Positions 584-8,405 of a stretch of DNA of 8,663 nt are shown here, piece by piece. The first letter of the stretch is position 1; every line of letters begins with the position of its first letter. A model generated the notes under the pieces. The model ran no database searches, had not been told where the DNA came from, and saw only the letters and a program-made list of their open reading frames with translations. The translations under genes were made by a program, and so were the position numbers. Source of the DNA: a virus (lineage: Duplodnaviria; Heunggongvirae; Uroviricota; Caudoviricetes); the IMG/VR virus record IMGVR_UViG_2671180854_000003, positions 1 to 8,663 of that record. One strand, 5' to 3'.

Positions 584-1023
584 TATAAGAATCCGATTCT
601 AATTCAAAGCATTACCCCATCAACACTGCGCTCACACGTCCCGCCACATCAAAACATGTAAAGCCTTGCAAGCCATTGCGAGGCCTTATGTGTCTCAGTT
701 TTGTCCCACCTTGTATTACGACTTGCATAGCCAATGAAGATAAATGTGACGACAAACGGCGCAGCAGTCTTCTTTTCTTTCATACTTTCCCACACCCGGC
801 TTGCATACCTTTCTGCCATAACTATAGTGAATGTCTGTTATGAGAGAGAGACGGAAGTCCCCCACTTTATAAGTCAGTTAATGGAGAAATTACTAGCAGA
901 CGGTGTACTTGGAACAAGTTAATGGATTATAATGATAAATTAAGCATCGTTATGATTTGAAATACTTAATTATGCTAATATTGATGGAAGCAATGAATTT
1001 TAAGACATGCATAGAGTTATAAA

Positions 1024-3834
1024 ATGATAAATTTAAATCCACTTTCTTTTTCTGAATATGACTTGAACGAAATATTGAATGCCAGTCAAGATAATAAGTT
1101 AGTTCTTTTTATTGGTGCTGGTTTTTCTAAATTCAGCGAAACGGAATTAATAAAAATACCAACCTGGAGGGAGTTAATAAATGAGCTAAAAGACGACTTA
1201 GGATTGTCTGAAGAAAATGATTATTTAAAAATAGCCCAACTTTACTTTCTTCAATACGGACAAAACTCTTATGTTAAAAAAGTCAAATCAATAATTAGAG
1301 ATTTGAAACCAAGTTTTTTTCATAAGATGCTATTTGAATTAAACCCCCACTATATAATTACAACCAACTGGGATAGTTTGCTTGAAAAAACTGCACAAGA
1401 CATAGGATTGGCTTATGATTTAGTTAGTTCTGACGTGGACCTGGCACAAAGTCATTTGGACAAGAAAATTATAAAGATGCATGGGGATTTTCGACAGAAT
1501 AATTTTGTTTTTAAAGAGGATGATTACTTACAGTACAGCCAAAATTTTCCACTTATCGAAAATTTTATAAAAGGAATATTCTCAACAAACACTGTTGTGT
1601 TTTTAGGATACTCTTATAGTGATTATGATTTAAAACAGATTGTTTCATGGGTTACAACTATATCAAAAGCAACACCAAGAAAATATTTGCTCCAGAAAAA
1701 TCATGATGCAGCCCAGGCTCTTTACTTAAGAAATCATGGGATATCCTTGTTGACACCGATGAATACTGACATTAGCTATCATGATCTTTATTCAAAATTT
1801 TTCAGTGATTTCAAGCTTGTTAAAAACCAAGATGAGTTTATAAAGAGGACCCTGATCTATACTGAGTCAAAGGTAAAAAAAATAGAAGATGACCTGAGAA
1901 TGTCTGATTTTGATAAAAATAAATTGAAGAATGATATTCAATGTATTGTAACAAAAAAAATAAATAAATATGTTGATAGCAAACTAAAAGCATTAACACA
2001 ATACAAAGTATTGCTCCCTGAGCAGATCAGTAAAAAATTAACTAATAGTACCATTGATTATGATAAGTCTGGGGTTAAACTAACCTCCCACAATAATATT
2101 TTGACGACTGATTATGACGAGTATAGCAGGAAAATAAATAGCATATACCTTAATGACATTTTGAGTAAAAATACTCACTTAAAAAAGACATTCTCATCTA
2201 TTTTGGAAAAGGCATTTATAAATACAGTTAGTTATGACTCGAAACTGTATGAGGTGATTAGTTCTTCAGAATTAGAGTCTGAGCTATACAATAAGATTTC
2301 TTTCGCTTATTCAAAGGATAATGCTGAAATACTTCTTATTAACAAGGAATATGGCAAACTTCTCGATATTCTTATTTCGAAAGTAAAGCTTCATCTTAAT
2401 GAGAGAAACTATATTCTCGCCACCATTCACATGTCTAATTTTGATTATGCTTACAGGATGTTGAAGTCGGATTTACACTGTAACGGTAAGGACATTGATG
2501 AAGATTGTAAATCAATAATGGAAAGCCATACTCCATTTGAGTTTAAAAGTAAAACAATTGATTTTCCACGGGGGGTGCAAAGTGAGCTACAAGAATTAGT
2601 AAAGATGCTTGAATTTAATGAAATATACAAAGCTTACTATCGATTTGACGTTGAATCGAAGAAGAATTTAGGGTACTCACAAATAAGAAAGAGTGGTGGA
2701 ATAGCATTTTCCAATGATGAATTTAAAACAAGAGCGAAACTGTACCCTTATGTGTATTTCATTTTAGGCAACGAAATTTTAATTGAAGAATATAAAGAGG
2801 TTAAACAATTTTTCGAATTTAATATTCTTAGTAGCCTCGAACACTATCTATGCGAAGAGATATTCTATGTTAATAGAATCGATCTATTTATGTTAATAAA
2901 ATACTGCGAGACAGAAAAACTCAAAAAATTTTTAAGTAAGGTAATAAAAGACAAAATAATAATCAGCACCAGCAAACTTGACAAAAGAGAAGTTCACCAT
3001 ATTAAGAAATATTTACTCAACTCTCTCGAAAACATATGCAACCTGATTAGGTTGAAAAATAAAAATTTTATTCATACCACTTCAATAGATCGATGGACCA
3101 ATAATTTATTGATTATATTAGGATGTGTTCCGTGGAGTTCAAACCAGTTAAAGAAAATAATAAATGGTTTGCTTCCTTTGTTAGAAGGCAGAACTAATAA
3201 CATAAATATTTATGAAAACATACATAATCTTCTAGCTGTGAATGAGTTTTTGTATCAAAAATCCCATGATGATATGTTAAAAATCCTGGATGTAATACTT
3301 ATAAAAATCAATACAGGAGAGTTAAATGGTTATGACCAGCATGTAATTAACTCCAATATCTTACGAAACATTTACATATTATCAGAGAATCATAATTACG
3401 AATACAAAAACACTGAACTATTAACATTAGCGTTAACAAAAATACAATTATTTGATGATAAGTGGAAAAGATCCATCACTAAGAGTTTATTATTGAACAT
3501 CAAAAGGATTGGCTCTCCTGAGGTCGTTGACATTATAGACAAGTTTATTAACAGTAATATTTTAAACCTACCACTGGCAACAGTAAGCGATATTATGGAA
3601 TGTTTGCATTTAGTCGCAAGCGGATGTGCCATGCCTGATCAATTTCTTGAGGTTATTAACAAATTTGTTTCTGAAAACATCCCGAATAAATTAGGCGAGT
3701 TAGATTTCATTACAGCTGGTGTAGAAAGTGATTTTCCTAACTTAATTAAAAGCCTTATAAAGGATAGAGGCTTTGTTGAATTTCAAGACACATTGGACAT
3801 ATTCAATGAACGAATGCAATCTCTAAAAAAATAA
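1024..3834 (+). CDS. SIR2-like (sirtuin/NADase-type) domain protein, 936 aa: N-terminal SIR2_2-like domain (~aa 1-300) plus ~630-aa C-terminal region of unknown function; candidate single-gene anti-phage defence protein (DSR-like architecture)
   Basis: Long uninterrupted ORF; N-terminal motifs LVLFIGAGFS (aa 26-35), ITTNWD (Asn115, nt 1366-1368), KMHGD (His153, nt 1480-1482), VVFLGYSYSD match the layout of SIR2-type NAD-binding/catalytic motifs in ThsA/DSR-type defence proteins; no Walker A P-loop seen; gene is far more AT-rich (~25-33% GC on sampled lines) than flanks (~50-55%). Confidence 0.8.
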   Translation: MINLNPLSFSEYDLNEILNASQDNKLVLFIGAGFSKFSETELIKIPTWRELINELKDDLGLSEENDYLKIAQLYFLQYGQNSYVKKVKSIIRDLKPSFFHKMLFELNPHYIITTNWDSLLEKTAQDIGLAYDLVSSDVDLAQSHLDKKIIKMHGDFRQNNFVFKEDDYLQYSQNFPLIENFIKGIFSTNTVVFLGYSYSDYDLKQIVSWVTTISKATPRKYLLQKNHDAAQALYLRNHGISLLTPMNTDISYHDLYSKFFSDFKLVKNQDEFIKRTLIYTESKVKKIEDDLRMSDFDKNKLKNDIQCIVTKKINKYVDSKLKALTQYKVLLPEQISKKLTNSTIDYDKSGVKLTSHNNILTTDYDEYSRKINSIYLNDILSKNTHLKKTFSSILEKAFINTVSYDSKLYEVISSSELESELYNKISFAYSKDNAEILLINKEYGKLLDILISKVKLHLNERNYILATIHMSNFDYAYRMLKSDLHCNGKDIDEDCKSIMESHTPFEFKSKTIDFPRGVQSELQELVKMLEFNEIYKAYYRFDVESKKNLGYSQIRKSGGIAFSNDEFKTRAKLYPYVYFILGNEILIEEYKEVKQFFEFNILSSLEHYLCEEIFYVNRIDLFMLIKYCETEKLKKFLSKVIKDKIIISTSKLDKREVHHIKKYLLNSLENICNLIRLKNKNFIHTTSIDRWTNNLLIILGCVPWSSNQLKKIINGLLPLLEGRTNNINIYENIHNLLAVNEFLYQKSHDDMLKILDVILIKINTGELNGYDQHVINSNILRNIYILSENHNYEYKNTELLTLALTKIQLFDDKWKRSITKSLLLNIKRIGSPEVVDIIDKFINSNILNLPLATVSDIMECLHLVASGCAMPDQFLEVINKFVSENIPNKLGELDFITAGVESDFPNLIKSLIKDRGFVEFQDTLDIFNERMQSLKK

Positions 3835-3845
3835 AGCCACTGAGA

Positions 3846-3892
3846 TAGGGCTGCTCTCTGTCAATTACCGCTCTTGGCACATAGCAGCCCTA
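3846..3892. repeat. Perfect 10-bp inverted repeat (TAGGGCTGCT ... AGCAGCCCTA) with 27-nt spacer, in the gap between the convergent SIR2 gene and pin
   Basis: Read directly: 3846-3855 is the reverse complement of 3883-3892. Confidence 0.6.
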
Positions 3893-4054
3893 GAAATGGT
3901 GACGTATAGTCATAGATGGTCGGTGACAGGAGATGCAAATCATCTCATACAAAAATACGTAAAATCAATAACGGCTAGAAATTATTCAACACTCGCACTA
4001 TCGACATTTCACCAGCTAACCGTAGCACGTTCTTGCATACGACGTGCTACGGTT

Positions 4055-4609
4055 TCATTTATCTCCAACCGGAAACTTCTTATACAGTGTCGATATACCA
4101 ACATCATAGATGATCGCCACCTTCTGGCGAGGAACGCCTGATGCAATTAATCGCCCGGCCTGCGCCCATTGTTCTGGTGTAAGTTTGGGACGACGTCCCC
4201 CAATTCGTCCCTGTGCGCGAGCAGCTTCCAGTCCAGCTTTTGTTCGTTCAACAATCAGTTCTCGTTCCATTTCAGCCAGGGCACCCATCACATGAAAGAA
4301 AAAACGCCCCATCGGTGTGCTGGTATCAATAGCATCCGTCAGGCTGCGAAAATTAACGCCACGTTCGCGCAACTCCTCAACCAGAATGACCAGATGCCGC
4401 ATACTACGCCCCAGCCGATCCAGTTTCCAGACCACCAGAGTGTCACCTGCCGATAATGTCCTGAGCAGTTTTTTCAGTCCCGGTCTTTCGGACTTCGTAC
4501 CGCTTATCTTGTCTTCAAAAATCAGTTCACATCCTACACAGTTCAACGCATTACGTTGTAGATCGGTGTTCTGGTCATTTGTTGATACGCGAACATAGCC
4601 AATAAGCAT
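4055..4609 (-). CDS. pin: Serine-recombinase DNA invertase, Pin/Gin/Hin/Cin family (184 aa from ATG at 4609)
   Basis: Translation MLIGYVRVSTNDQNTDLQRNAL...VVWKLDRLGRSM...GRIGGRRPKL is near-identical in pattern to Pin/Gin invertases (catalytic Ser in YVRVST motif, C-terminal HTH); the ORF-track start at 4645 adds a 12-aa extension that homologues lack. Confidence 0.9.
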   Translation of the reverse strand: MLIGYVRVSTNDQNTDLQRNALNCVGCELIFEDKISGTKSERPGLKKLLRTLSAGDTLVVWKLDRLGRSMRHLVILVEELRERGVNFRSLTDAIDTSTPMGRFFFHVMGALAEMERELIVERTKAGLEAARAQGRIGGRRPKLTPEQWAQAGRLIASGVPRQKVAIIYDVGISTLYKKFPVGDK

Positions 4610-4635
4610 GGTAGATCCCCCAGGTAAAAGCAGGA

Positions 4636-4971
4636 ATGATGCCATTTGCTCGTTATTTCTGCATTTTCATAAACCTTGGTTTTGGAGAAGGTGCTAACTG
4701 GGTTATGTTACCTGGAGGAATGATAATTCAGCGTGTTTATCTTGGATTTCCTGTCGGCACCAATGTAAGACACATAACTTTCCCCCGGTCGTTTACAACA
4801 ACGAACTATTCCATCTCAATTAACTGGAATGATATCGGTACTGTAACAACTGAAACACAATCGCCAGCAAATGTGGCGGTTGTTCATCAAACAAAATCAT
4901 TAACAGGGGCCAGCATCTGGCAGGCAGGTCCCGGGGGATTTAATGTGGACATTATAGCGGTGGGGTATTGA
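4636..4971 (+). CDS. Alternative tail-fibre C-terminal cassette (Sv'-type), currently in the silent orientation; would be fused to the constant stf 5' part after inversion
   Basis: ORF encodes NLGFGEGA across the crossover site, mirroring ENLGLGEGA at the second site inside stf; followed directly by a tfa gene; the ATG at 4636 lies outside the invertible segment and is probably not a real start. Confidence 0.5.
   Translation: MMPFARYFCIFINLGFGEGANWVMLPGGMIIQRVYLGFPVGTNVRHITFPRSFTTTNYSISINWNDIGTVTTETQSPANVAVVHQTKSLTGASIWQAGPGGFNVDIIAVGY
4664..4689. other. Invertase crossover site (gix/hix-like), invertase-proximal: TTTTCATAAACCTTGGTTTTGGAGAA
   Basis: Quasi-palindromic 26-mer with AAACC-NN-GGTTT core resembling Hin/Gin recombination sites; lies ~55 bp upstream of the pin start. 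Confidence 0.7.
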
Positions 4972-4972
4972 T

Positions 4973-5401
4973 ATGTACGTATGGAGCGCTAAAGCAAATG
5001 GCTTTTTCCCCATATCGGAGAAAGAAAAATTTGAGGCATCAGGTCTGTGGCCTGATGATGGTGTAATAGTCAGTGAGGAAGAACATAAGAAGTTATTTAT
5101 GGATATTCCACCAGGAAAACAGATTGGAACACTGAATGGAAAACCAGCACTGATAGATATTCCTCAGCCGACCAAAAAGGAATTAATAGCTATTGCTGAA
5201 GTTAAAAAATCCCAATTACGGGAAAAAGCTGACAGTGAAATATCCTGGCGTCAGGATGCTGTTGATGCTGATATCGCAACTGATGAAGAAGCTACAACTC
5301 TCACCCAATGGAAGAAATACCGTGTGCTGCTGATGCGTGTTGATACGTCAACAGCACCCGATATTGAATGGCCTACGCCTCCGGCAGTTCAGGCCAGATG
5401 A
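4973..5401 (+). CDS. Tail fibre assembly protein (Tfa/Mu U-like), partner of the alternative cassette
   Basis: 142-aa ORF with C-terminal motif KKYRVLLMRVDTSTAPDIEWPTPP typical of phage tail-fibre assembly chaperones. Confidence 0.8.
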   Translation: MYVWSAKANGFFPISEKEKFEASGLWPDDGVIVSEEEHKKLFMDIPPGKQIGTLNGKPALIDIPQPTKKELIAIAEVKKSQLREKADSEISWRQDAVDADIATDEEATTLTQWKKYRVLLMRVDTSTAPDIEWPTPPAVQAR

Positions 5402-5966
5402 TATCCGGCGCGGTGCTGGTATCTGTTGCCGTCACCGCGTCAATGTAATCCAGCACGGCGTTAAGTCGGGTTGTTTCTGCCTGAGTCAGTTTCCGTCCGG
5501 CCTGTAATTTCAGCTGAATCAGACTAATGGAAGCCATTGCTGCATCAATCAGTGACTGGCGCTGTGCTTCTGCCGCGTCTACTGCGGCACTGTGTTGTGC
5601 CTCAGTGTCTGTCACCCATTTCTCACCATCCCATTTATCGTATGGCGTTAACGGTGAAATCGTGACATAACCGTCTTTGATGGCACCGATATAATCCACT
5701 GTAACAGCTGCGCCATTTTCGATTGAGTAAACAGTCTCATTGCGATGGTCTTCTTCATGGCGCCATCCCTTACCTGTAAATACTGCCACTCTTCCCGGAA
5801 TGTTTTCGCCAGGGTCAATACCAGTGGAACAGGCGGGCATACTTACGCCAGTATTAATATATTCATCAGACCAGCCCGTATACTCAGATGTTTCAGCATC
5901 ATAATAAAAACAACGCATATCGCCCGGCACTGTAGCCAGCCCATTTTCATCAAAAACAGGTTTCAT
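5373..5966 (-). CDS. Tail fibre assembly protein (Tfa/Mu U-like), partner of the currently expressed tail-fibre variant
   Basis: 197-aa ORF with C-terminal motif DTSTAPDIIWPELPEA; start overlaps stf stop (TAATG at 5964-5968). Confidence 0.85.
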   Translation of the reverse strand: MKPVFDENGLATVPGDMRCFYYDAETSEYTGWSDEYINTGVSMPACSTGIDPGENIPGRVAVFTGKGWRHEEDHRNETVYSIENGAAVTVDYIGAIKDGYVTISPLTPYDKWDGEKWVTDTEAQHSAAVDAAEAQRQSLIDAAMASISLIQLKLQAGRKLTQAETTRLNAVLDYIDAVTATDTSTAPDIIWPELPEA

Positions 5967-6712
5967 TATTTAGCCCTCACCAGAAAGTTAAATGCAATAT
6001 TTCGCGGTCTGACAGCAACAAAATTCACACCATCACCCACAGAGTTACTGGTGAAATTAAATCGTGAAAATCCTGGCTGATTTCCGGCGATGCCATCATG
6101 AAAGTTAATTGCGTGTCCCGCACCTTCGCCTATATTCCCGGCAAACTGAGAAAAGTTTGTAGCTGCCTGCCAGCTTAATAATTCGCGACCACCGTCTGCA
6201 CCTCGCCCGTCATCCCAGATACGAATGAAATCACCGCGGGCTTCAGGTAATACCAGCGAAGGAAACACTTTCGCCAGCACAGGATAATCAGTGGCAGAGA
6301 ATTTCGCGCCGTTGAACTTCAAAAACACCATACTGGACCAGCTGTCGATTACAGTATTTGGCATTGCAGCGGACGGCCAGAAGAACGGAACGCCAATAGC
6401 TGGAGCACCTTCTCCCAAACCAAGGTTTTCGAGAGCTGTTTTCACCGTGCCATCCGATTTGATATCGCCAAACGGATTCTTGCGGCTTAACAGCAGCGCA
6501 CGAAGCGCGGTAAGCAGCTGGTCGTGCCTCTCCTTCTCCAGGCTGGCACCGGATGCCTCCACCACGCTACAAAGCTCTTCCTGCAACATGTCAAAGTAGT
6601 CATCATCCAGATCGGTGGCAGGCGTGCCGGTCTGGGGGTTGCCACGGGTAAAACCGTTCTTACCCGCGCCGAACTTATCCTTCTGCGCGGTTTTCGTGTC
6701 TATGCGATGCAT
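5966..6712 (-). CDS. Short side tail fibre protein (248 aa): constant N-terminal part (outside the invertible segment) fused to variable C-terminal part (inside it)
   Basis: N-terminus [20 protein letters not shown]... and glycine-rich body typical of e14/Mu-type tail fibres; crossover site lies inside the ORF at aa ~93-101; followed by a translationally coupled tfa. Confidence 0.85.
6410..6435. other. Invertase crossover site (gix/hix-like), distal, inside stf: TTCTCCCAAACCAAGGTTTTCGAGAG
   Basis: Its reverse complement matches the 4664-4689 site at 21 of 26 positions; central dinucleotide AA versus TT shows the two sites are in inverted orientation. Confidence 0.7.
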
Positions 6713-6715
6713 GGA

Positions 6716-7300
6716 TTACTCCGGATATTTAAAAATTACGTAGGTATGAGACGGACAGAGTTTGTTAAGCACACATTCGACAACGGTATCGCCCCAGATA
6801 CGCAGTGCGGAATCACAGGGATCGCCACATGTCATCCAGGTGGTGTTTGTGGCGGCTGGCATGTTGACCTGCCAGTAATACCGCCATTCCGGCGCATTCA
6901 CCGCGTCAGTACAGGCCGATGAGCAGGTGAACGTGCTTTTGTCGTATCGCGTGATGGTAGCGTCTGGTCTGCCCAGGGCAGCAAGCTGTGCAAGATAAAA
7001 ATTCTCGTTGATGCCGCCCGCCAGGTTAACCTTCGCATCCAGCCGTTGCTGACGCTGGCGAAGGGTCTGTGTCCCTGCGGGAATACATTCATCCGGCAGA
7101 CCGCACAGACGCTCCCAGCGGTTTATCAGTTCGGTGGTGGTGCGCGGATCCAGCTCCCGCATCAGGGCATCCGCACGCTGATGAACGCGGGTTAATGACG
7201 GTGCCGCACCGGCAATCGACGGATCGCTGGCTGACCACGCCGGACCGGGGGGCAACAGTGCCGACAACAGACGGATGTAATCATCGTTTGTCACGTCCAT
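6716..7300 (-). CDS. ymfQ: Phage tail/baseplate protein, YmfQ/DUF2313 family (Mu gp48 / P2 gpI-like position), 194 aa
   Basis: 194-aa ORF immediately upstream of stf with a 3-nt gap (translational coupling); sequence beginning [22 protein letters not shown] recalls the e14 YmfQ family (from memory). Confidence 0.7.
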
Positions 7301-7449
7301 GAAATCGTCCCCAGTACCGCCAGTTCATTTTTTGCAATGGAGATATTGTCTGCCGGTGCAAGCAACTGATGGCTGTATTCCCCGTTCGCACCGGAAATCG
7401 CCTCACTGATACGCGATACCTTCAGTTCTCCCTGCGGATATGGGCAGCT
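7291..7449 (-). pseudogene. Probable 3' remnant (~52 codons) of a baseplate-J-like tail gene, truncated at its 5' side
   Basis: Open frame on the minus strand from the Rz stop down to a TGA at 7291-7293 that overlaps the ymfQ start by 8 nt (typical tail-operon overlap); no start codon or 5' part present; identity as J-like is inferred from gene order only. Confidence 0.3.
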
Positions 7450-7911
7450 CTATCTGCACTGCTCATTAATATACTTCTGGGTTCCTTCCAGTTGTTTTTG
7501 CATAGTGATCAGCCTCTCTCTGAGGGTGAAATAATCCCGTTCAGCGGTGTCTGCCAGTCGGGGGGAGGCTGCATTATCCACGCCGGAGGCGGTGGTGGCT
7601 TCACGCACTGACTGACAGACTGCTTTGATGTGCAACCGACGACGACCAGCGGCAACATCATCACGCAGAGCATCATTTTCAGCTTTCGCATCAGCTAACT
7701 CCTTCGTGTATTTTGCATCGAGCGCAGCAACATCACGCTGACGCATCTGCATGTCAGTAATTGCCGCGTTCGCCAGCTTCAGTTCTTTGGCATTTTTGTC
7801 GCGCTGGGCTTTATAGGTAATGGCGTTATCACGGTAATGATTAACAGCCCATGACAGGCAGACGATGATGCAGATAACCAGAGCGGAGATAATCGCGGTT
7901 ACTCTGTTCAT
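7450..7911 (-). CDS. Rz: Rz-type i-spanin (153 aa from ATG at 7911)
   Basis: Translation [41 protein letters not shown]... closely matches lambda Rz as I recall it; start overlaps the endolysin stop (ATGA). Confidence 0.9.
7509..7691 (-). CDS. Rz1: Rz1-type o-spanin lipoprotein (60 aa), embedded in the +1 frame inside Rz
   Basis: Translation [26 protein letters not shown]...PPPPPAW... with lipobox (VVGC) and proline-rich region, as in lambda Rz1. Confidence 0.85.
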
Positions 7912-8405
7912 TGCTGACCCCACAAACAGATTTCACGCTCAATCTCACGACGAGTCATGAGACCTTTCCATTGCTTACCGCCAGCATATGTCCAGCGACG
8001 TAACTGATCACATGCGCCTTTGATATCGCCCTGGTTTATTTTGCGAAGAAGCGTCGATGTTCTGAAATTGCCAGCACCCACGTTGTAAACGAATGAGTAA
8101 AGAGCGCCGCGCGTTGTTTCCGGTATATCGACTTCGATGTATGGGTTAATTTGTCTGGCGACAGTGGCAAGGTCTTTATTCAAGAGTGCTTTGCATTCTG
8201 CTTTGGTATACGTTTTACCGAGCATGATGTCTTTTCCTGTATGCCCGTGACATACGGTCCATACACCAACAATATCTTTGTATGGTATGTAGCTGACACC
8301 TTCCAGACCATCGTTACCACTTGGGCCAGTGATTAACACTGATGCTATAGCAATTGCTCCGCCACCAATAGCAGCAGCAACGGCTTTTCGTAATGATGGA
8401 GGCAT
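7908..8405 (-). CDS. SAR-type endolysin (phage lysozyme, P21 R / DLP12 RrrD-like), 165 aa
   Basis: N-terminal signal-anchor-release segment [30 protein letters not shown] followed by lysozyme body; near-identical to P21-type endolysins from memory; start overlaps holin stop (TAATG). Confidence 0.9.

Follow-up and report, generated by a model that had tools for sequence, protein, structure and literature searches.

What is the function of the long stretch, free of any recognisable motif, that follows a SIR2 domain in a protein encoded at the end of an Escherichia coli prophage? The question is raised by the DNA analysed here, the 8,663 nucleotides of IMG/VR virus record IMGVR_UViG_2671180854_000003 (hereafter the window), in which a complete gene (1024-3834, + strand, stop codon included) encodes a SIR2 protein of 936 residues. 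The evidence assembled below suggests, with a probability of about 75%, that this C-terminal region is the sensor or regulatory part of a divergent DSR2-family defence sirtuin, attached to an N-terminal SIR2 hydrolase of nicotinamide adenine dinucleotide (NAD+) that would be triggered by a phage protein. The closest characterised relative is DSR2 of Bacillus subtilis 29R, reportedly described by Garb and colleagues in 2022 as defence-associated sirtuin 2. DSR2 is a tetramer; a phage tail tube protein triggers its depletion of NAD+, and DSAD1 inhibits it.

A long coding region behind the SIR2 domain

The limits of the gene are supported by the list of open reading frames (ORFs), full-length homologues, an AlphaFold2 (AF2) model and an exact look-up in a protein collection, where the product (hereafter the window protein) is identical to WP_054463976.1, annotated just as 'SIR2 family protein'. 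The window DNA is that of E. coli. An earlier note, made from the nucleotide sequence and its ORFs, had singled out positions 1930-3834, in frame within the single ORF and encoding residues 303-936 together with the stop codon, as some 630 residues rich in Leu, Ile, Lys, Asn and Glu. The measured composition agrees (L 12.8%, I 11.2%, K 10.6%, N 8.5%, S 8.0%, E 7.3%), the bias being largely a consequence of the low G+C content of the gene (30%, versus ~50% in its flanks), a difference that marks horizontal acquisition. The region itself is real, but its start lies further upstream than had been supposed: alignment to DSR2 and the structural model place the end of the SIR2 domain at about residue 275 (nucleotide ~1848), so that the non-SIR2 part begins ~80 nucleotides before 1930 and comprises ~660 residues. 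Judged by its conservation, it is genuine coding sequence and no chance ORF, because homologues of ~920-950 residues are conserved over their full length.

Motifs and family models leave the region blank. Walker A ([GA]xxxxGK[ST] and looser forms), GK[ST], Walker B and CxxC motifs are all absent from the whole 936-residue protein, which agrees with the earlier statement that no Walker A motif follows the SIR2 domain; the sole Pfam match of the protein is SIR2_2 (residues 111-242), and the C-terminal part alone has zero matches in PADLOC and NCBIfam.

Predicted fold and remote homology to DSR2

The full-length AF2 model, built from an 80-sequence alignment (mean predicted local distance difference test score, pLDDT, 86.8; predicted template modelling score, pTM, 0.77), is nearly all alpha-helix from about residue 252 onwards, except for a small four-stranded sheet at residues 342-410. 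When this model is compared with the PDB by Foldseek, DSR2 chains occupy the first 50 places, the top 44 matches spanning ~945-1066 columns with template modelling (TM) scores of 0.54-0.65 under both normalisations, a best E of 2e-22 and identities of 16-18%; TM is 0.60-0.65 for chains aligned over ~945-970 columns. So that the SIR2 domain could not carry the match, residues 275-936 were modelled alone from a 19-sequence alignment (pLDDT 88.7, pTM 0.86), and the top 42 matches were again all DSR2 (E 4e-6 to 2e-3, TM 0.48-0.60); beyond them stood only generic HEAT/ARM proteins (SF3b, CAND1, CAP-G and importin-alpha; E>0.03, TM<0.2). No enzymatic fold occurred among the Foldseek matches of the region in the PDB. 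The C-terminal region is thus predicted to have the fold of the DSR2 middle domain and HEAT-like solenoid, and the guess of a DSR2-like helical-repeat region has stood up: structure prediction, which the earlier note had proposed as a check, yields a helical, sensor-type fold and no defined enzymatic fold of the nuclease or NTPase kind.

Two domains can be delimited in the model. The middle domain (~residues 276-530; 1849-2613, + strand), defined by AF2 secondary structure and by a profile alignment to DSR2 ~300-547, consists of long linker helices, the four-stranded beta insert seen in the AF2 models (2047-2253, + strand) and a helical bundle; the middle domain (MID) of DSR2 itself comprises residues 299-547 (PMC11850899). 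It is followed by a HEAT-like alpha-solenoid (~residues 531-936; 2614-3831, + strand), the equivalent of the DSR2 C-terminal domain (CTD; 548-1005) and the proposed module for ligand binding and dimerisation.

Profile-profile comparison argues that this likeness is one of homology and not only of analogy. DSR2 residues 300-789 were rebuilt from a HMMER alignment, with a numbering confirmed by 19/19 residues named in PMC11087589, and their relatives were gathered and aligned to give a profile of the DSR2 MID and CTD. Against it, hhalign places a C-terminal-only profile of the window protein's family at 97% probability (E ~1e-11) over 424-432 colinear columns. The score with the real DSR2 profile is 99.5, versus 15.8 when the profile is reversed, 11-14 when its columns are shuffled and 26-35 when blocks of 20 columns are shuffled; since these controls fail, the match is not an artefact of composition. 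A distant relative of the window protein (P0247, 1050 residues) also reaches the DSR2 middle domain by BLASTP (E 0.002, 331 residues). The earlier note had gone no further than a conditional analogy with DSR2, and the comparison with its controls takes the relationship beyond that. A full-length family profile that likewise reached DSR2 residue 789 was not relied on, because the remainder of the alignment might simply have been pulled in by the strong match of the SIR2 part, and was replaced by the C-terminal-only test.

The same evidence bears on whether the protein has some other SIR2 architecture, of the Avs5/SIR2-STAND, ThsA, SIR2-HerA, SIR2-prokaryotic Argonaute (pAgo) or DSR1 type, with a second module that was missed. 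The top PADLOC scores of the window protein do belong to ThsA models, accompanied by weak matches to PDC-S25, PDC-S65 and LmuA, yet ThsA models and structures align to residues 15-230 only, within the SIR2 part; the weak PDC-S25 and LmuA matches extend to ~residues 383-433. Walker A and B motifs are lacking, the structural matches contain no SLOG, STAND, HerA or Argonaute fold, no conserved partner gene accompanies the gene in five genomic contexts, and the DSR1 models of NCBIfam (NF041818, E<=1) and PADLOC (PDLC02183, E<=0.01) have zero matches. Tests of motif, fold, partner gene and model thus reject the STAND, SLOG, HerA, pAgo and DSR1 architectures, and such an explanation is largely refuted, with next to no probability left to it; the exclusion of Avs/STAND proteins and of a ThsA-type SLOG domain, first argued from the missing P-loop, holds for the predicted fold as well.

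The N-terminal SIR2 domain

The domain to which this region is attached (~residues 1-275; 1024-1848, + strand) is identified as a SIR2 NAD+ hydrolase (NADase) domain by Pfam SIR2_2, by phmmer and by its catalytic residues. Residues 14-273 match DSR2 29-301 with an E of 6.6e-35, well ahead of ThsA and KomC, and S35, N115 (1366-1368), D117 (1372-1374) and H153 (1480-1482), all on the + strand, align with the DSR2 catalytic residues S51, N133, D135 and H171 (PMC11850899). All four are invariant across the 80-sequence homologue alignment, and the domain is a candidate for an active NADase.

Deacetylases and ADP-ribosyltransferases are found among SIR2 domains in general (PMC11850899), and the protein might on that account be a SIR2 enzyme unconnected with defence, such as one that deacylates or ADP-ribosylates a target of the prophage or the host, with the C-terminal region serving in substrate recruitment. 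This is very unlikely: DSR2, ThsA and KomC, the nearest relatives of the domain, are without exception defence NADases, classical sirtuins are not among them, and the best PADLOC matches are the SIR2 parts of ThsA. The prophage cargo slots and defence islands in which the gene family resides argue in the same direction, as does its patchy spread in E. coli, which together with the 30% G+C content fits a mobile defence gene.

A probable, partly conserved relay pocket and a changing surface

Few residues of the C-terminal region are invariant in the 80-sequence alignment (F427, N472, P515, F579, N583, N670 and N694), and no invariant constellation of acidic, basic or histidine residues occurs there. 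In the hhalign residue map, N472, P515, F579, N583, E592 and D756 correspond to identical residues of DSR2 (N477, P532, F594, N598, E607 and D776). Particular interest attaches to the segment F505 ... F514-P515 (2536-2568, + strand), the counterpart of F522, M531 and P532 in DSR2. There these residues form part of a middle-domain pocket into which the W143-Y148 loop from the SIR2 domain of the partner protomer fits, and mutations in the pocket impair activation by the tube protein (PMC11087589). In this remote alignment, DSR2 P532, M531, F522 and I463 map to P515, F514, F505 and L458, while N521 and Y471 map to P504 and A466 and are not conserved. P515 is invariant in 80/80 homologues, with F514 and F505 aromatic or hydrophobic in nearly all, and the three residues probably form the relay pocket of the window protein.

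Compared with the window protein, homologues are 48-94% identical in the SIR2 domain and 22-82% in the middle and C-terminal domains. The picture suggested by these alignments is one of a conserved effector and coupling device combined with a fast-changing binding surface. Between two E. coli alleles there are 10 non-synonymous and 11 synonymous differences, distributed among the domains according to their length, a number too small for the comparison to test diversifying selection.

Several results weigh against placing the region in the DSR2 family as a sensor of phage protein. The structural evidence consists of predicted models, not solved structures, and structural alignments of the C-terminal part to DSR2 have an identity of just 11-17%. 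phmmer finds zero matches for the C-terminal part among PDB sequences at E<=10, and a profile of 19 C-terminal sequences retrieves from the PDB only a designed protein (E 0.08) and not DSR2; with Pfam, NCBIfam and PADLOC likewise empty there, sequence-to-profile methods cannot place the region, and the failure of the profile-to-sequence search marks the relationship to DSR2 as remote. The profile comparison spanned DSR2 to residue 789, the last ~225 residues of DSR2 being covered by the structural alignment alone. The NCBIfam Dsr2 model (NF041819) gives the window protein 67 bits versus a cut-off of 1400, over residues 14-211 only, and the PADLOC Dsr2 model (PDLC02184) matches neither the protein nor its C-terminal part. 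The literature, searched for these accessions and for DSR2-like proteins, yielded no paper. The tube-binding residues of DSR2 (F492, L495, L497 and L498) fall in an insertion absent from the window protein's family, as does L634, and the other tail-tube contact positions (site 1 and site 3 residues) vary in the family. With this loop absent and these contacts variable, the ligand and its mode of binding may differ from those of DSR2.

The missing loop also favours an explanation in which the DSR2 fold is kept for a different job, the C-terminal region being mainly a scaffold for oligomerisation and autoinhibition and the signal having some other source than the binding of a phage protein to it; nucleic acid, small molecules, a perturbation of the host or sensing by the SIR2 domain itself could each serve. 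The residues conserved with DSR2 would suit such a scaffold, lying in the probable relay pocket and in helix packing and not at ligand contacts, and the C-terminal domain also mediates dimerisation in DSR2 (PMC11850899). Both the activator and the inhibitor of DSR2, the sole relative so far characterised, however, bind its middle and C-terminal domains (PMC11087589), alpha-solenoids are usually protein-binding modules, and the C-terminal domains of the family evolve much faster than the SIR2 domain, as is typical of a surface engaging a changing phage ligand. A pure scaffold is on balance unlikely, and a region that binds a phage protein and sets the specificity of the trigger, as the earlier note had supposed, is the reading we prefer.

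Proposed mechanism and trigger

By homology with DSR2, the window protein would be held as an autoinhibited oligomer through its SIR2 and C-terminal domains, a tetramer in the case of DSR2. On infection, a protein produced by the phage would attach to the middle and C-terminal domains, and the conformational change that follows would be relayed by the F505/F514/P515 pocket to the partner chain's SIR2 domain, opening the NAD+ site; NAD+ would be depleted and the infection aborted. Since the main tube-binding loop of DSR2 is missing, something other than a tail tube protein could be the trigger.

A more specific proposal, tentative and at somewhat less than even odds, is that the family is a distinct clade of DSR2-fold sirtuins, known to date mainly from Gammaproteobacteria (with Neisseria as an exception), which has kept the effector and relay pocket and rebuilt the surface of its middle and C-terminal domains for a phage protein other than the siphovirus tail tube protein. 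Were this so, the ~215 clusters of homologues described below would be a natural series of specificity variants, showing one alpha-solenoid scaffold retargeted, and a new trigger-sensor pair would be available for coliphages.

Current defence-system models leave the window protein unclassified, and recognition of the DSR2 fold points to abortive infection by NAD+ depletion as its likely function. It also supplies a map for experiment, with N115, D117 and H153 as catalytic residues, F505, F514 and P515 as the probable relay, and residues ~276-936 as the part in which to seek trigger specificity. The absence of the Bacillus tube-binding loop makes the family a good candidate in which to seek a new phage trigger, with E. 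coli and its phages as a tractable system, and its study could show how alpha-solenoid sensors shift specificity.

Distribution of the family

Full-length homologues of 920-950 residues, at identities from 84% down to ~28%, are found across the Enterobacterales, in Serratia, Klebsiella, Enterobacter, Pantoea, Pectobacterium, Citrobacter, Yersinia, Erwinia, Dickeya and Providencia, and further in Aeromonas, Gilliamella, Acinetobacter, Neisseria and Avibacterium (Pasteurellaceae). Within E. coli the gene occurs in 14/5426 complete genomes, its location being chromosomal in every case and its identity >=99%, the carriers including pig-associated enterotoxigenic and other E. coli. A tblastn search of 50,697 phage genomes gave two weak matches, confined to the SIR2 domain, and the protein was not found in the free phages of that set.

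The C-terminal module is tied closely to its effector. Its profile matches 215 clusters (50% identity) at E<=0.001 among 1.84 billion representative proteins, the module starting at ~residue 260-350 in nearly every full-length match; SIR2_2 precedes it in 8/8 proteins sampled for unusual length, and no fusion to another identified effector domain was seen among the representatives matched. Two shorter proteins, of 700 and 697 residues (P0141 and P0150), carry the whole module from residues 18 and 56, respectively, with no detectable SIR2 domain; they could be shortened gene calls or stand-alone sensor proteins.

Genomic context

The gene stands alone, as cargo at one end of a prophage integrated at thrW. 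A partial copy of this tRNA-Thr gene (500-583, - strand) was located by megablast of 500-640 to annotated tRNA-Thr (query positions 1-84); its strand was read from the sequence, which resembles the reverse complement of the 3' half of the tRNA, and ARAGORN found no complete tRNA there. It is flanked by the SIR2 gene on one side and by a LysR pseudogene, itself beside paoD, on the other; several matches of the window in E. coli start at 530, and the partial copy is apparently the attachment-site repeat of the prophage's far end. With that repeat as the boundary, the SIR2 gene is the outermost cargo, the first gene inside. Outside it, ORF 1-411 (136 residues) is not a gene, consisting of the last codons of paoD joined to the LysR-family pseudogene remnant; the pseudogene is annotated as incomplete in UMNK88 and was presumably truncated when the element integrated.

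Homologous loci are diverse. In E. coli the gene lies between the partial thrW and the pinE invertase gene, in a prophage with a Mu-like tail module; in Enterobacter it is found in a lambdoid nin region, in Aeromonas alone amid housekeeping genes, in Acinetobacter on an integrase island with AbiJ/AAA genes, and in Avibacterium near GmrSD, with a hydrolase gene and an insertion sequence transposase between. No conserved partner gene was found in these five loci, and flanking non-coding DNA has no conservation across them. The slot between thrW and the tail-fibre genes (584-4054) varies among E. coli strains when compared with a second locus (L008, 9222-11615) and further matches (H14/H15), holding the SIR2 gene alone, the SIR2 gene accompanied, in the absence of pinE, by an acyltransferase and a LEM-3-like GIY-YIG protein, or the GIY-YIG protein with an AraC regulator without SIR2. 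In this the slot resembles a hotspot for cargo or defence genes carried by a prophage.

Upstream of the SIR2 gene, a scan for promoters and terminators gave counts not above those of shuffled controls, and no promoter was assigned. Two hairpins stand between its stop codon and the convergent pin gene: that at 3846-3892 has 19-nucleotide arms and no following T-run, and that at 4020-4056, followed by TTTCATTT, may be a shared terminator. The terminator scan called neither.

Beyond the slot, 4055-6712 is a classic invertible host-range switch, in which a pin-type invertase gene (4055-4645, - strand) stands beside a segment with 25-nucleotide inverted repeats (4671-4695 and 6404-6428, 96% complementary) that holds opposed cassettes for the tail-fibre C-terminus and tail-fibre assembly. 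After ymfQ (6716-7300) come Rz/Rz1 spanin and lysozyme genes (7450-8405, - strand), where the best-matching genome, UMNK88, has baseplate, tape-measure, sheath and tube genes; similarity ends at 7440, which suggests that a rearrangement or deletion has affected this copy of the prophage.

Comparison with known defence systems

Several characterised systems resemble the window protein in part. ThsA, which acts by abortive infection through NAD+ depletion, has a related SIR2 domain (PADLOC E 5.5e-29; PDB ThsA chains, E ~1e-14 to 1e-19), but is a protein of ~480 residues whose C-terminal SLOG domain binds a cyclic ADP-ribose signal from ThsB; the window protein has no SLOG domain, and no ThsB (TIR) partner gene lies near the SIR2 gene. 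Avs5 proteins such as EfAvs5 combine an N-terminal SIR2 effector with a large C-terminal sensor of phage protein, as is proposed here for the window protein, but carry a central STAND/NOD ATPase with Walker motifs and are activated by filamentation, whereas the window protein has neither Walker motifs nor an NTPase fold. The HerA ATPase and short Argonaute genes of SIR2-HerA and SIR2-pAgo (SPARSA) systems are absent from the window and from the five homologous loci. The Sir2 homologue of the E. coli screen of Vassallo et al. was considered and set aside, belonging as it does to a two-gene system like Sir2/HerA and not being the window protein.

The name DSR2 itself requires care. Gao-type Dsr2 shares with the window protein an N-terminal SIR2 domain, a large C-terminal region without an annotated domain and a single-gene organisation in defence, but its models (NF041819, 1215 positions; PDLC02184, 1222 positions) are ~280 residues longer than the window protein. 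Residues 300-789 of B. subtilis DSR2 match neither model, and a 54%-identical relative of DSR2 (P0121) matches the PADLOC model in its SIR2 part only and the NCBIfam model not at all. Since the C-terminal part of B. subtilis DSR2 is itself missed, the models describe a different, longer group and the label is heterogeneous; on these comparisons, the DSR2 of the structural papers and that of the annotation models are not one sequence family.

It is to B. subtilis 29R DSR2, known from cryo-electron microscopy structures (8K98, 8WKT, 8WYB and others), that the window protein stands closest. Both are single proteins (1005 versus 936 residues) with the same order of SIR2 domain, middle domain and HEAT-like alpha-solenoid, their SIR2 domains are homologous with identical catalytic residues, and part of the relay pocket is probably common to the two. 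The window protein differs in a C-terminal domain ~50 residues shorter, in lacking the F492/L495/L497/L498 loop, and in being carried by an E. coli prophage in a Gram-negative host, unlike the Bacillus protein. It is most likely a very divergent and unannotated addition to a known kind of single-protein defence NADase, and not a new kind of system.

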